64,000 nt of DNA, from NCBI GenBank assembly GCA_041661965.1, contig JBAZTH010000002.1:1-64000 (forward strand), given 5' to 3'. The notes below the pieces were generated by a model, which saw nothing but the letters and a program-made list of their open reading frames with translations, made no database searches and was not told the DNA's origin. This DNA comes from Candidatus Margulisiibacteriota bacterium (lineage in GTDB: Bacteria > Margulisbacteria > WOR-1 > O2-12-FULL-45-9 > XYB2-FULL-48-7). Both the position numbers and the translations under genes were made by a program. This document shows, in pieces, positions 4,220 to 18,090 of this stretch (positions are counted from its first letter, which is position 1; every line of letters starts with the position of its first letter).

Positions 4220-4292
4220 GCGCCATTAGCTCAATTGGTAGAGCAGCTGACTCTTAATCAGTTGGTTGAAGGTTCAAGTCCTTCATGGCGCA
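4220..4292 (+). tRNA. tRNA-Lys (anticodon CTT)
   Basis: Acceptor GCGCCAT/ATGGCGC plus A, anticodon loop CTCTTAA (U33, CUU, A37), T-arm GAAGG-TTCAAGT-CCTTC. The last 3 nt overlap inverted-repeat copy IR-L. Confidence 0.9.
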
Positions 4293-5721
4293 TTTTCCCT
4301 TTACAGCGAACCATCGCTGATGTTGGGCGGCTTGGAGGCGACGAATGTTGCCGACAAGCCGCCCTATTATTATGATCGGCCGAAAAATCCCCTTCCGCCG
4401 CAGGGTCGCGCAGCGGGCCGGAGGCGGCATCGACGCTATCGGAATACAATAGTTTGACTTCTATCGTCTCTTTCGAATAAATGACCTTTTCGATGTGCCT
4501 TTTTATGACCAGGCGTTTCTCAGTTTTTCCCTTCAGTTTTGCCGCGTCAATGACGGCTTTTAGTATCTCCTGGACTCTTTCGGTCTTTATCGGTGAGTAA
4601 CCCCCACCTGGTTCGCACCCACTCAAGCCACCATTGCTATCGTTATTGAGCACGTAGGTCAAACTATCAAGGTATTGTCTGTTATTCCTGATCCTATCAA
4701 GGTTATCGATGATAAACTTGTCCAGCCGGTCGGCGCTCACCTGTCGGATGTCGCAGAATGACCGATCTCGCTTATCGATAACTGAACAGCGGTAGTAGAA
4801 ATATCTGGTCCGCTTGTTATTGGCATATTTGACCTTGTTGGTGAACACCGCGCACATAGCCGAGCCGCACTCTTTACAGCGGATCAAGCCGGGAAATAGC
4901 GAAAAGTTAAAGGTTGTCATCTTCTTGGGCCGAATATGGTCTTTCCTGATGTTCTGGACCTCATCGAAAATCATTTTGGAGATGATCGGCGTGTGAAGGC
5001 CCTGATATATTGTCCCCTTATGCTCGACCATCCCGGCATGGACAACGCCTTTCAGGATCGAATCTAAGCCGGTTTTAGAATGAGGCAGGCCGGAGCGGGT
5101 AAACTGTTTATTAGCTTTAAGCTTGTCGTAAATCCGCTGTGTTGAATGGGTCTCCAAAAAGTCCTCAAAGATAGTTTTGACTATTTCGGCCTCTTTGGGA
5201 ACGATGACCAGCTTGTTGCCATCCCTCTCGTAGCCAAATGGTGCTCTGCCAGGCCCCCACAACCCCTTTCTGGCCTTCTCGAGTATCTTGTCCCTGATCC
5301 GCTCGCTGATAAGCTCCCGCTCGAATTGGGCGAAGGTCAGCATTATATTCCGTAGCAGTCGACCGGATGGCGTTGAGGTATCAAAGCGCTCGGTTATCGA
5401 AAGGAAGCTAACGTTGTGCCTCTCAAATATTTCTATAAGCTGATAGAAGTCTTTGGGCGATCTGGTCAGCCGATCGATCTTGTACGAGATAACTATATCG
5501 AGCTTGCCTTGCTGTATATCGTGGAGCATTTCCTTCAACGCCGGGCGGTCCGTATTTGCGCCCGTGTAGCCCTGGTCCGAATAGACCTTGTAAATATCCA
5601 TCTTTTCCTGACTGCTAACAAACGACCTGATCTTTGACTCCTGGGTCGCACAGGAATTAAACTCAACATCGGCTTGGCTATCGGTAGAGACCCTGGTATA
5701 GATTGCTGCTTTCATGGTCAA
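4258..5721 (-). CDS. Large serine recombinase (resolvase/invertase catalytic domain, recombinase domain, zinc ribbon)
   Basis: N-terminus MKAAIYTRVSTDSQ...YKIDRLTRS (catalytic Ser motif), then a recombinase domain and CxxC...C zinc ribbon. There is no in-frame stop before 4258, so the last ~65 codons read through IR-L and the antisense of tRNA-Lys; the native C-terminus is uncertain. Confidence 0.9.
   Translation of the reverse strand: MTMKAAIYTRVSTDSQADVEFNSCATQESKIRSFVSSQEKMDIYKVYSDQGYTGANTDRPALKEMLHDIQQGKLDIVISYKIDRLTRSPKDFYQLIEIFERHNVSFLSITERFDTSTPSGRLLRNIMLTFAQFERELISERIRDKILEKARKGLWGPGRAPFGYERDGNKLVIVPKEAEIVKTIFEDFLETHSTQRIYDKLKANKQFTRSGLPHSKTGLDSILKGVVHAGMVEHKGTIYQGLHTPIISKMIFDEVQNIRKDHIRPKKMTTFNFSLFPGLIRCKECGSAMCAVFTNKVKYANNKRTRYFYYRCSVIDKRDRSFCDIRQVSADRLDKFIIDNLDRIRNNRQYLDSLTYVLNNDSNGGLSGCEPGGGYSPIKTERVQEILKAVIDAAKLKGKTEKRLVIKRHIEKVIYSKETIEVKLLYSDSVDAASGPLRDPAAEGDFSADHNNRAACRQHSSPPSRPTSAMVRCKGKMRHEGLEPSTN
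4290..4451. repeat. IR-L: left copy of a perfect 162-bp inverted repeat (partner 6789-6950), abutting the tRNA-Lys 3' end
   Basis: Base-for-base reverse-complement identity with 6789-6950, checked by eye. A further ~50 bp inward (4452-4500 vs 6740-6788) is ~75% identical. Confidence 0.9.
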
Positions 5722-5907
5722 TTTCCTCCTTTATTTGAGATCAAATACTTAAGCTCTTTTATCAAAACTTGCTGGGCGTTCATGCTATTAAGTTTTTGGA
5801 TGTAAGCCAAGAACTTATTGCACTCGACCTTTTGGGCCATACTACAGATAACCCCGGCTTGCCTCTTGTCGCAATAACAGCAAGGGTGAATTGGATAAAA
5901 CGGCATA

Positions 5908-6453
5908 CTAAAACACCTCCCTGCCTGCCGGTATGGCAGGCTTGTTTAAAACGAAGCAATGACTGGCGAGATCAGCGGGCAATGAGGCCCCACCGCCGCA
6001 GAGAAACACATAAACCGGAATGCCGCGCCTGACTGCCTGACGCACCGTGAACAGCGTGCCCCGGGACGAACCATGCAGGAAAGCAACCAGGCACGAGCAG
6101 GCAGAGATAAGCCGCTGATTGCGCCCCAGAAGCGCGGAGACCGCCTGCTGCCGCGCCGCGCCGGGAGAAGCCGAACCCCAAACCACCTGACCACCAGCGG
6201 CCAGAAAACGCCCAACCGAGGGACGGACCGAGACCGGAAACCCGCCAGCCGAAGACCAAGCCGAGAAGACCACCCCCGAAGCAGATGCCCCCTGCTCAAC
6301 CAGGGCGGAAAGGGCGAACTGATCAGCCCCAACTGCGCCACCGGAGGCCACCAGGAAGCCACGAGCCCGGAACGCGGAGACCAAAGAGGCAACGAACGGG
6401 GAAAAAGAAGCGGGAAGCGAGCGGGAACCAACGAAACCAGCAATGCGAGACAT
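5908..6453 (-). CDS. DprA/Smf-like Rossmann-fold protein (DNA-processing family, short form)
   Basis: GGAVGADQFALSALVEQGA and GSSRGTLFTVRQAVRRGIPVYVF resemble the DprA Rossmann domain. Preferred start is the second ATG (MSRIAGF) behind RBS GGAGGTG. The gene is GC-rich, unlike the adjacent AT-rich recombinase. Confidence 0.45.
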   Translation of the reverse strand: MSRIAGFVGSRSLPASFSPFVASLVSAFRARGFLVASGGAVGADQFALSALVEQGASASGVVFSAWSSAGGFPVSVRPSVGRFLAAGGQVVWGSASPGAARQQAVSALLGRNQRLISACSCLVAFLHGSSRGTLFTVRQAVRRGIPVYVFLCGGGASLPADLASHCFVLNKPAIPAGREVF

Positions 6454-6515
6454 ATGAGCCACCTCCTGAAACAAGATGAAATGGACCTAGCATTTTTTTC
6501 TTCCTGTCACCCGGA

Positions 6516-16275: not shown

Positions 16276-16277
16276 AC

Positions 16278-17825
16278 ATGAATGAGAATTATATTACGAA
16301 GACTAGATATCGAGAAGGGTTATTATGTCCAATATTACTGTGGCATAAGATTCACGAGCCAACAAAAGTTCCACAACCTGACCCTTTCGCAAGAATTAAA
16401 ATTGAAGGCGGGATTCAAGTCGGTATATTGGCAAGAAAATTATTTCCTGATGGCCTTCTTATCGAAAAAGAGACGTCGGCAATACTAACCCATGAAAAAT
16501 CGCTAAAAGCACTACAATTGCGAAAGCCATTATTTGAGGCAGGGTTTATCTATAATCATGCATATGCATTAGCAGACATATTAATCCCAGCAGAAGACAA
16601 CTCATGGGATTTACTCGAAGTAAAAGCAGAAAATTCGATTGATGAGAAAGATTATTGCTGTTTGAGTGAGAGCTTTAACCTTGATTGTGCTGACGTTGCA
16701 TTTCAGAAATATACATATACTAAAGCCGGCATAAATATTAGAAATTCTAATATCCTACATCTTAATAAGAAATACATTTATGATGGCAAAAAACTATTAT
16801 TAGAAAAGCTCTTTATTACCCCTGAAAAAGTGAATGACCCTAAAATCAAATTGATTGTACATGATGAGATTGATCGCCACCTCCCCCTTGTCGAAGCCAA
16901 TATAAATAAACTTGAGGAAATATTACAAAACAATGCTCGCCCTAAAACCATATTTAACAGAAATTGCAAGAAATGCGTATTGTACGACGAATGCTCCAAT
17001 ATCTTACCACCCGATCATGTTCTAATGCTAAGAAGGGATATGAAAGGCATTCGCTTCCAAATGCTGGAAAAGGGAATCACAAAATTATCAGACATCCCAA
17101 TAACTTCCGAGATAAAAGACCAAAAGATTGAACAAATTAATGCACATAAGACTGGAACAACATTAATTAAAACCAAGAATATTAGGGAATTTATAGACAA
17201 AATTGAATACCCCGCATATTTTCTAGATTTTGAAACAATTGACCCTGCCATCCCTATCTTTGAGAAAACACATTCATATCAAAAGATCCCATTCCAATAT
17301 TCATTGCATATAATAAAGAAGCACGGGGAAAAAGCAGAACATCATAGCTATTTAGCCAAAGGGGATGTTGATCCCAGGCCCGAATTATTGTCCCAGCTTA
17401 AAGCACTATTGGGCGATAGGGGCTCAATAATAACCTATAACGCTAAATTTGAAAGAGGTAGATTAAAAGAGGCGTCTGAAGACTTTCCAGAATATAGTGA
17501 TTGGTTTAATAATAATATTAATGGGCGCATAATTGATTTAGAAGAACCTTTCGATAAGTTCTTTTACTATGATCCCAAACAAAAAGGCAGTACATCTATT
17601 AAAGCTATTTTACCCGTATTAACTGATTGCAGCTATGAGGGGTTGGAAATATGCGAAGGGGGTACTGCCGCCGCTGAATATATTAGGGTTACTTTTAATA
17701 GTGTCGATGAAAAAGACAAAGAAAATGTTCGGAATCATCTGGAAATATATTGCAAGCAAGACACACAAGCTATGATAGATATACTGGAAAGATTAGAACA
17801 AATAGCCGCTGACAATACAAAATAA
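16278..17825 (+). CDS. DUF2779-like protein: Cas4/RecB-type PD-(D/E)xK nuclease region with Cys cluster plus C-terminal DnaQ-like exonuclease region
   Basis: CPILLWHK...CxxC cysteines and the YPAYFLDFETID motif (DEDD-like exonuclease) recalled from DUF2779 family members. 2 bp downstream of the helicase stop. Confidence 0.45.
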   Translation: MNENYITKTRYREGLLCPILLWHKIHEPTKVPQPDPFARIKIEGGIQVGILARKLFPDGLLIEKETSAILTHEKSLKALQLRKPLFEAGFIYNHAYALADILIPAEDNSWDLLEVKAENSIDEKDYCCLSESFNLDCADVAFQKYTYTKAGINIRNSNILHLNKKYIYDGKKLLLEKLFITPEKVNDPKIKLIVHDEIDRHLPLVEANINKLEEILQNNARPKTIFNRNCKKCVLYDECSNILPPDHVLMLRRDMKGIRFQMLEKGITKLSDIPITSEIKDQKIEQINAHKTGTTLIKTKNIREFIDKIEYPAYFLDFETIDPAIPIFEKTHSYQKIPFQYSLHIIKKHGEKAEHHSYLAKGDVDPRPELLSQLKALLGDRGSIITYNAKFERGRLKEASEDFPEYSDWFNNNINGRIIDLEEPFDKFFYYDPKQKGSTSIKAILPVLTDCSYEGLEICEGGTAAAEYIRVTFNSVDEKDKENVRNHLEIYCKQDTQAMIDILERLEQIAADNTK

Positions 17826-17905
17826 ACATCCAATATATAAGTAACTATATGCTGTCGTAATCTTTTCGGAGGAATTCAAATATAACATTAGTCGGCAAAT
17901 TAATA

Positions 17906-18090
17906 AGCAGTTTTTTCGACGCATGGGGGAGAAAAAAATGATTATTTGACAAATTATTGCCTATTCAGGTCTTTTTTTCATCCATGGTGTTGGGTATAAT
18001 CATTGAGATAGCCCCCGGCGCTGAATGGTCTGATGATCATCGGGTCGAGGCATTTTTCTCTTCTATCGCCTTCTGCCTTCGCCTTTAGCT
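17906..18090 (+). promoter_or_regulatory. Cassette copy C: degenerate version of B (TTGACA 17946-17951, TATAAT 17995-18000, weakened -35, leader to 18052), with no gene downstream
   Basis: Aligned by eye to copy B. Small deletions in the -35 region; the tail hairpin is absent. Confidence 0.5.

Follow-up and report, generated by a model that had tools for sequence, protein, structure and literature searches.

A 64,000-nucleotide (nt) window of contig JBAZTH010000002.1 (assembly GCA_041661965.1, from a Candidatus Margulisiibacteriota bacterium) carries a large serine recombinase (LSR) gene beside a tRNA-Lys(CTT) gene, together with three copies (A, B and C) of a leader sequence that ends in the same bases as the tRNA. 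Positions 4293-18052 probably constitute an integrative island inserted at the 3′ end of tRNA-Lys(CTT) by its own LSR, with the ends of the tRNA and of the leaders serving as attachment (att) sites. The boundaries of this island are defined by an unoccupied site in a relative, and the same arrangement of sites recurs in related elements at different tRNA genes. That the LSR catalyses these events, and at which dinucleotide it crosses over, we infer from the comparison of sequences.

The tRNA-Lys gene and leader A, which lies on the minus strand, are both followed by the same 159 nt, hereafter U (tRNA-Lys, 4292/4293, ...CATGGCGCA/TTTTCCCTTT; leader A, read from 6979 to 6948 with its junction at 6948/6947, ...GGGTCGAGGCA/TTTTCCCTTT). 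Leaders B (copy 12323-12354, junction 12354/12355, ...GGGTCGAGGCA/ATTCTCTC) and C (copy 18021-18052, junction 18052/18053, ...GGGTCGAGGCA/TTTTTCTC) share the terminus GGGTCGAGGCA with A, and all three leaders contain TATAAT and GGCRCTGAATGGTYTGA. Chance is ruled out as the source of these coincident junctions, because three matches to GCATTTTYCYYTT were found against 0.06 expected and three to the 32-nt leader pattern against 0.00 expected. The original prediction that four junctions change partner at the same GCA is thus borne out at all four positions. The switch in identity that it described sets A apart from B and C, and the leaders apart from the tRNA. Between B and C there is no such switch, as they stay homologous for ~40 nt past GGCA (TTCTCTCTTCTATyGCC...GCCTTTAGC), both continuing into chromosomal flank (B′). 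The two copies of U form part of an inverted repeat that is perfect over 162 nt (4290-4451 / 6789-6950), starts 3 nt (GCA) inside both the tRNA and the leader, and extends inward imperfectly to 4507 / 6734 at 95% identity. Within the right arm of this repeat, the 3′ end of the recombinase gene recurs in decayed form at 6788 to 6734. GC content is 35-43% across 7000-18000, compared with 50-58% in the surroundings, and rises after 18000.

The hydrolase encoded in the right flank has a 91% identical homologue on a contig (Logan SRR28229728_137115, hereafter L178) in which the 3′ end of tRNA-Lys is fused straight to the flank found after copy C (GAAGGTTCAAGTCCTTCATGGCGCA/ATTTTCTCTCC...). The reverse complement of L178 opens with GAAGGTTCAAGTCCTTCATGGCGCA/ATTTTCTCTCCTCTGCCTTAGCC... 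and continues with genes for a 133-amino acid (aa) protein, a Band-7 protein and the hydrolase. These are the same genes as downstream of copy C, and L178 is 90.6% identical to positions 18186-20932 of the window. Because this relative joins the tRNA-Lys end directly to the flank that follows copy C, and so presents a clean, unoccupied target, 4293-18052 (13.76 kb) is, on this comparison, an insertion bounded by the GCA of the tRNA and the GGCA of leader C.

A scan of genomes with the LSR alignment yielded 80 loci from Margulisiibacteriota, the Candidate Phyla Radiation (CPR), Omnitrophota, Planctomycetia, Ignavibacteria, Nitrospirota, Elusimicrobia and others. U could be aligned to that of the window in 11 loci, and in 11/11 the LSR module is flanked by two copies of it in inverted orientation. 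Copy 1 of U adjoins a tRNA 3′ end in all 11 (Lys, Leu, Ile, Val, Met, Tyr or Ala), and copy 2 adjoins a leader that ends like the paired tRNA (GCA/GCA in 3 loci, CCA/CCA in 8). The triad of sites, i.e. tRNA/U, inverted internal leader/U and distal leader/flank, was assessed in seven elements with sufficient flank and is complete in the window, L006, L008, L009, L010, L013 and L027. The distal leader of these elements lies 2.6-6.6 kb away, in direct orientation relative to the tRNA. In all seven, proximal and distal leaders are the same up to the core and unrelated beyond it, and the proximal leader matches the tRNA exactly from the core on; together these place the exchange point within 3 nt, (G/C)CA. 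The closest parallel is L006, a curated complete WOR-1 genome with an element at the same tRNA-Lys site, an LSR module 87% identical to that of the window and a hairpin, H, that is also found in the window (Table 1). Its distal unit is 85% identical to that containing leader B up to GGCAAT and unrelated afterwards. The cargo of L006 is unrelated to that of the window, and synteny of the flank is back after the distal leader.

A search with a profile of U gave no match outside the Margulisiibacteriota clade, and more distant elements were studied through their self-complementarity. The LSR is flanked by inverted repeats of 50-360 nt in 40 loci. In 25 of these 40 the repeat runs, at its outer end, 3-11 nt into the annotated 3′ end of a tRNA gene, and its leader-side arm carries those bases as well. 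The 25 loci represent CPR, Omnitrophota, Planctomycetia, Ignavibacteria, Nitrospirota and others. The shared core is GCA in the window and 3-11 nt elsewhere, with no long target duplication, and localises the crossover to a few bases, a resolution coarser than the exact dinucleotide. Among viral contigs there were only 2 real relatives, each at a contig end, and the phage database held nothing above 40% identity to the LSR; the family is not obviously phage-borne.

Comparison of about 19 loci revealed an offset between the tRNA and leader arms of these sites. The T-loop motif GTTCR of the tRNA starts 21-24 nt upstream of the junction, its counterpart RTTYR in the leader starts 3-5 nt, mostly 4, farther out, and a mirror motif YRAAC (reverse complement) in U ends at +17 to +20. 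MAFFT aligns the leader with the tRNA arm by opening a 4-nt gap in the tRNA. In the window the conserved dyad is formed by GGTTTGA (6973 to 6967) with CGAACC (4307-4312) and its mirror copy, giving an attP-type quasi-dyad with a distal motif farther out than in attB. The computed dyad centre falls at about tRNA positions 70-72, inside the shared core or one base off. In the Listeria integrase (LI) studied by Rutherford et al., the zinc-ribbon (ZD) motif occupies positions 16-24 of the attP half-site and lies 5 bp nearer the centre in attB (PMC3783163). With this published spacing rule, the assignment of leader/U as an attP-type dyad, of the tRNA arm as B-type, of tRNA/U as attL and of leader/flank as attR is supported.

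The suggestion that the leader serves the neighbouring LSR as an att-like site by mimicking the 3′ end of the tRNA is likewise supported, by the empty site, the tRNA-overlapping repeats of 25 loci, the seven pairs of leaders and the shifted T-loop-like motif. A dyad of AGAG and CTCT around copy B, noticed at the same time, was not upheld, being neither symmetric around the junction nor conserved in relatives. The leader was also considered as a decayed 3′ fragment of a tRNA. This was rejected, as its match to the tRNA is confined to the core and the shifted pentamer, and elements at different tRNAs share a conserved leader.

Table 1. Features of the island and its target in the window, with putative roles in recombination.
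Feature	Position	Strand	Remarks
tRNA-Lys(CTT)	4220-4292	+	ARAGORN, Rfam; last gene of a Gly-Arg-Leu-Lys tRNA cluster; T-loop GGTTCAA 4271-4277; common core GCA 4290-4292
U, left copy	4293-4451	+	Putative P′ arm with CGAACC 4307-4312; with 4290-4292 and 4452-4507 makes up the left repeat arm
LSR gene	4258-5715	-	Conserved core 5715 to 4453, 421 aa; identical to NCBI MFA6169697.1
62-aa Cys-rich open reading frame (ORF)	5718-5906	-	Between the DprA-like and LSR genes; same position in 12 related loci
DprA-like gene, 181 aa (DNA_processg_A fold)	5908-6453	-	Pfam PF02481, 38.7 bits; first gene of the operon
5′ untranslated region (UTR) of the operon, structured	6454-6745	-	Alignment of 11 loci
Inverted repeat, right arm	6734-6950	-	U right copy 6947 to 6789; core TGC (GCA on minus strand) 6948-6950
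Leader A	6948-7030	-	Runs 7030 to 6948; putative P arm; promoter-like -10 TATAAT 7003 to 6998; GGTTTGA 6973 to 6967
Hairpin H	7045-7090		AGCGGGCGCG...CGCGCCCGCT; between leader A and the cargo promoter region 7126-7149; second copy 12413-12459
Cargo 1	7166-12171	+	Five genes, GC 37-40%: ParB-like, 140-aa protein, SNF2 helicase, second PD-Lambda-5_A/PDC-M38A-like, B12/radical-SAM-like
Distal unit B	12198-12354	+	Hairpin 12198-12243; promoter TTGCAT, 17-nt spacer, TATAAT 12300-12305; leader B 12270-12354
Cargo 2	12574-17825	+	1233-aa SNF2 helicase (DrmD/BrxH-like, under curated cut-offs); 515-aa DUF2779 protein (Cas4-like)
Distal unit C	17902-18052	+	Decayed hairpin, TATAAT, leader C 17965-18052; predicted outer attR with B′c 18053-~18100, the right end of the island

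Leader A with U represents a complete attP-type site inside the integrated element, and together with attL it forms an inverted repeat of ~215 nt that is kept around the integrase module across phyla. The geometry of this repeat is constant: the arms begin at the core and reach ~56 nt into the LSR gene at its 3′ end, for a total span of 2.55-2.70 kb within the clade. Arms are 78-97% identical within a locus, far above the identity of arms between loci, and constant in length. On sequence grounds, this likeness of arms within a locus indicates ongoing exchange between them. The original prediction that att sites would explain the inverted arrangement of copy A holds in part, in that copy A has the form of an intact attP-type site; any reason for its retention in inverted orientation is conjectural.

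The 3′ end of the LSR gene faces the tRNA in most loci. In L017, tRNA-Tyr lies beside the DprA-like (5′) side of the module, i.e. in the opposite orientation, and this assembly is probably sound, as its arms differ at an informative position. Hairpin H stands upstream of the proximal leader in L006, L007, L009, L010, L013, L017, L085 and L176. In L176, and for proteins P0002, P0011, P0013 and P0016, the LSR gene reads into an H-type leader in antisense. P0123, from the same 90%-identity cluster as P0001, also reads from the LSR into the leader in antisense. Because the internal leader remains H-type in the flipped loci, it is, judging from this layout, the module that is inverted, and not the element that has integrated via its other site. 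Both orientations are seen between related elements (L017, L176, P0123, P0002), not within one population. The inversion may be carried out by the LSR rather than by homologous recombination, and either the inversion or the binding of LSR at A may regulate mobility.

A closer inspection of the LSR reading frame revealed that it stays open past the conserved core and through U, with the stop codon at 4258 in the antisense of the tRNA. Among 19 loci, this frame is open to the junction in 19/19, compared with 4/19 and 1/19 for the other frames, and the stop codon is always past the junction, 27-197 nt beyond it, in the antisense of the tRNA or leader. The crossover thus falls inside the integrase reading frame. 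Since the stop codon lies past the junction, the C-terminal tail of the LSR depends on the sequence joined at the crossover, and the integrated, flipped and free forms of the element would encode different tails, the tail itself being non-conserved.

We propose the following arrangement. attP would be made up of the leader as P arm and U as P′ arm, both with a T-loop-like motif at attP-type spacing, and attB would consist of the real T-loop, ~4 nt nearer the centre, and the acceptor stem (3′ strand). Strands would be exchanged inside the shared GCA, at about tRNA positions 71-73, so that tRNA/U at 4292/4293 would be attL and leader C/flank at 18052/18053 attR. The junction of leader B with the sequence after it (B′b) would be a second attR-type junction marking a tandem cargo cassette, and leader A/U would be an intact attP-type copy retained in inverted orientation inside the element. 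As attL and copy A bracket the DprA-like/62-aa/LSR module in the form of an inverted repeat, the module could flip. In the present state the operon would be read from the promoter of leader A, by way of U, with the tRNA gene reading antisense to it; flipping would swap these roles and also alter which sequence ends the LSR reading frame. Excision would join the strong distal promoter (TTGCAT, 17-nt spacer, TATAAT) to U.

U contains a hairpin of 16 bp (4325-4364, mirrored at 6915-6876) followed by a U-rich run, and its conservation extends beyond the hairpin. Across 20 sequences, 9-10 of its pairs show compensatory changes and one G.U pair is invariant (alignment columns 33-72). It looks like a terminator that the element would supply to transcripts of both the tRNA gene and the leader, attenuating the latter. 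Rfam, at gathering and permissive thresholds, matched tRNAs only and gave no hit for U, the leader or the 5′ UTR.

Several other explanations of this architecture were weighed. The leaders could be a mere shared promoter or 5′ leader that co-regulates three defence-island operons, with GGCA as the end of a regulatory RNA or operator. A conserved -10 TATAAT in every copy, a good -35 in B and in the distal copies of other loci, structured sequences downstream and a conserved cargo promoter region common to L176 would all fit such a role. However, the last 3-11 nt of the leader co-vary with the tRNA beside the recombinase, copy C coincides exactly with the edge of the insertion as given by the empty site and has no gene after it on its strand, and the T-loop-like motif and its mirror in U occur at integrase-type spacing; we regard the promoter role as a sole explanation as very improbable. 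Promoter and att functions of the leader can coexist. We give slightly less credence still to another reading, namely that the 2.66-kb unit 4290-6950 is an insertion sequence (IS)-like transposon with a serine transposase and ~215-nt terminal inverted repeats, inserted between the tRNA and a pre-existing leader and separate from the island. Its layout does resemble terminal inverted repeats enclosing a recombinase, and many homologues are on 2-3-kb contigs, but L178 lacks the entire 13.8 kb and not merely the 2.66-kb unit. Moreover, a leader is always beside the outer end of the repeat, across phyla and tRNAs, the core is shared with the tRNA, islands are bounded by distal copies of the leader, and the short contigs are explained by assembly breaks at the repeat. 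Serine recombinases also invert, and do not excise, DNA between inverted sites.

An assembly artefact, i.e. a chimeric or mis-joined metagenomic contig, might be suspected from a perfect 162-nt repeat that is longer than usual k-mers and at which other assemblies of the same organism break exactly: its contig in ENA begins precisely at 6789, and contigs of 2.4-2.6 kb from JGI and Logan hold the inner segment only. Three independent assemblies are identical for the parts that they contain, and more than 25 independent genomes show this architecture, so that an artefact has a negligible probability. In particular, because this architecture occurs in the curated complete genome L006, where the arms are just 78% identical, the repeat is, as far as sequences can tell, one that breaks assemblies and yet is not an artefact. 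Many public contigs of metagenome-assembled genomes start or stop exactly within these repeats (L006-L085), and many homologous LSRs are on contigs of 2-3 kb. The element family is a systematic cause of metagenome assembly breaks beside tRNA genes.

A further alternative accepts the att sites and concerns copy A alone, which would be an operator for self-repression of the LSR, the flips in relatives being functionless, occasional RecA-dependent crossovers. This we consider doubtful, though much the most serious of the rivals. Copy A does lie between the -10 of the leader and the operon, the arms evolve in concert as gene conversion would give, and the flipped state is found in just ~4-8 of roughly 50 elements. 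Recombination of attL with attP is, moreover, no reaction of canonical serine integrases (PMC3783163), which also speaks for an operator. On the other hand, ~50 bp would be enough for an operator, yet the conserved stretch is ~215 nt long and keeps its geometry from phylum to phylum, and P0001 and P0123 differ in orientation within one 90%-identity cluster. The nearest named relatives of the LSR are, moreover, Ccr-type recombinases, and these use several site pairings.

A number of observations weigh against the island having been formed by its LSR at these sites in the manner proposed. The empty site L178, found in a strain that has diverged, covers just 25 nt of the tRNA 3′ end, and its junction can be resolved to GCA +/- 1-2 nt. 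The predicted attB pattern (tRNA end followed by TCTCTTCTATYGCC) had no match in metagenome contigs, because B′ of the actual empty site has diverged and the pattern was too strict. No circular form and no recombination product of this element was found, and the exact LSR protein of its flipped state is not in the protein collection. Some contigs of the opposite orientation (L176) cross repeats of more than 120 identical bases, where the path of the assembler may be arbitrary. As for the sites, the dyad centre derived from the motifs of the window lies one base left of the 3-nt core, and the B′ arms contain no mirror motif. An intact attP within an integrated element, and recombination of attL with attP, depart from the strict pairing of attP with attB that holds for phage serine integrases. 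Finally, standard attP x attB events do not account for the duplication of B′b.

This duplication concerns the right part of the island. B′b (12355-12397) is a copy of the chromosomal flank that gives an attR-type junction with leader B, and both B′b and B′c resemble the B′ of empty site L178. Direct leader/B′ junctions therefore stand on either side of cargo 2, at B (12354/12355) and C (18052/18053), an arrangement that looks like cargo cassettes in tandem, with two junctions of attR type. The routes considered to this state were tandem integration (into attL or attR) and inversion between A and attR; none yields the observed B′b junctions. A circle with one leader/B′ site that recombined with attB would give the arrangement, which is speculation. 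A search for flank synteny, based on the H+-pyrophosphatase beside the tRNA cluster, gave 80 loci, 0 of which had the tRNA-Gly-Arg-Leu-Lys cluster, U or the leader.

The LSR has the full three-domain architecture, with a catalytic resolvase domain at its N-terminus and recombinase and zinc-ribbon domains (Pfam Resolvase PF00239, 133 bits; Recombinase PF07508, 45.7; Zn_ribbon_recom PF13408, 43.1). The conserved catalytic motif is present, and YTRVST is invariant in an alignment of 30 homologues. The nearest named families are CcrB, which scores highest, and XisF, both far under their cut-offs; the scores for curated families are 200 bits for CcrB (cut-off 900), 145 for CcrC (900) and 137 for CcrA (700). 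The 62-aa protein had no family match in Pfam, NCBIfam or PADLOC and is a candidate accessory or directionality factor. The DprA-like protein, whose gene is conserved in 15 related loci, is also only a candidate for a directionality role. The 5′ UTR of the operon contains a long-range helix in which 6703-6678 pairs with 6509-6488, enclosing ~170 nt of hairpins (170-290 nt across loci). This closing helix has 19 pairs with many compensatory changes and almost none broken among the 11 loci aligned, and it stops ~30 nt short of the ribosome-binding site. Covariation between inverted sequences of this kind could alternatively stem from exchange at the DNA level. TTGACA...TATCAT at 6488-6509 / 6678-6703 had been considered as divergent promoters, a reading dropped in favour of the covarying helix. 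Conserved motifs of the UTR include CCUGUCAAGGUC and GGGUGACAGG.

The cargo genes are all defence-like, cargo 1 containing two ParB-like/PD-Lambda-5_A-like proteins. None reaches a curated cut-off and no known defence system is formed; they are candidates for new defence systems. A Pfam scan of the ten ORFs in 4258-17825 gave no Phage_integrase match. Cargo 2 is preceded by the second copy of hairpin H. Terminator-like hairpins upstream of the distal leaders (12198-12243, 17902-17947) are conserved in relatives, and their G-rich loop is similar to that of hairpin H (GTGGGGGA / ATGGGGC). Immediately 5′ of the first cargo gene, TTGTATAATAACTGTTAATTGTTA (7126-7149) is near-identical in L176 (~2810-2840) despite different cargo. 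It looks like a backbone promoter that would drive whichever cargo is present.

The known kind to which this element belongs is the serine-integrase integrative island; what is new is its target, the design of its sites and the conserved internal inversion architecture. With the invertible segments of Hin and Gin it shares a recombinase gene inside a segment bounded by inverted sites; both orientations, which occur in those segments, are seen here between related elements. The orientation of the Hin segment sets which promoter connects to which genes. Here, in contrast, the enzyme is a 421-aa integrase-type protein (not ~190 aa), the repeats are ~215 nt (not 26 bp), no enhancer is known and the inversion sites double as sites of island integration; by its enzyme and the length of its repeats the module falls outside that class. 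Recombination alters the 3′ reading frame of the integrase in Myxococcus phage Mx8 (intP) and in SSV1-type archaeal integrases, where the att site is within the integrase gene, such that the free and integrated proteins differ. Those enzymes are tyrosine recombinases, whereas here only the non-conserved C-terminal tail of a serine recombinase changes. The staphylococcal cassette chromosome (SCC) elements, such as SCCmec, are alike in that CcrB is the top-scoring named family for the LSR. SCC elements have a conserved housekeeping gene as their target and insert at its 3′ end, carry variable cargo and form tandem or composite arrays bounded by repeated att cores, as at B and C here. In contrast to these, the present LSR reaches 200 bits against a cut-off of 900, targets a tRNA and not rlmH, and comes as a single recombinase gene with long flanking inverted repeats.

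Phage-type serine integrases (Listeria A118/LI, Bxb1, phiC31) are alike in their three domains, short core, quasi-dyad attP of ~46-50 bp, position of the integrase gene near one end of the element, and attB motif nearer the centre (4 nt here, 5 bp in LI, PMC3783163). They differ in that the site targeted here comprises the T-arm of a tRNA gene together with its acceptor 3′ strand, with P and P′ arms that mimic the T-loop, that a second attP-type copy is inverted inside the element, and that the reading frame crosses the crossover; phage relatives are at most 40% identical. Tycheposons and Islander-type islands are also cargo or defence islands at tRNA genes, often in tandem arrays. Large serine recombinases were found in 27/937 tycheposons (bioRxiv 10.1101/2020.12.28.424599). 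In most of these islands the integrase is a tyrosine recombinase, and a displaced piece of the tRNA 3′ end remains at the far end as a direct repeat, whereas here 3-11 nt are shared and the mimic has a shifted spacing. The present island is not of the tyrosine-integrase type, as there was no tyrosine recombinase match among the ten ORFs scanned with Pfam and the leader shares 3 nt and a shifted pentamer with the tRNA. Its inverted internal site has not been described for tycheposons or Islander islands.

In the Islander work serine integrases were not known to target tRNA genes (PMC4383910), and Mageeney et al. placed 14/297 serine-integrase elements at t(m)RNA genes, a use previously unreported and said to need proof (PMC7192596). 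The family described here is a large one that uses tRNA genes, whereas these papers of 2015 and 2020 had serine integrases barely or not doing so. Searches of full-text literature, with incomplete coverage, found no T-loop-mimicking attP, internal inverted attP or site-crossing frame in serine integrases. Serine integrases are major tools of genome engineering, and the logic of the present sites, a T-loop mimic plus a short matching core, is legible from sequence. It predicts attP/attB pairs for at least 14 different tRNAs, and edits of a few bases might reset specificity. The inverted attP copy, the flipping module and the crossover-spanning frame would add a layer of control not described for serine integrases, and the family marks integration hot spots with uncharacterised defence-like cargo in poorly studied phyla. 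A wider proposal is put forward tentatively, and in its entirety we think it unlikely: that these elements form a widespread, undescribed class of serine-integrase islands which recognise the universal T-loop and are retargeted through a few bases of the leader, carry a self-flipping module between attL and an internal attP, rewire promoter and C-terminus on flipping or excision so as to sense whether they are free or integrated, and in which orientation, and set mobility, and exchange cargo, mostly of defence genes, at leader/B′ sites.

Outside the island, a second patch of low GC (37.6%) at 28001-29000 directly follows tRNA-His (28147-28224). A weak inverted match joins 20785-20822 and 28345-28382, and the region is possibly another integration remnant. 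At 51284-51375, short repetitive CGAATATAATACGAATACA-like units form an imperfect inverted repeat.

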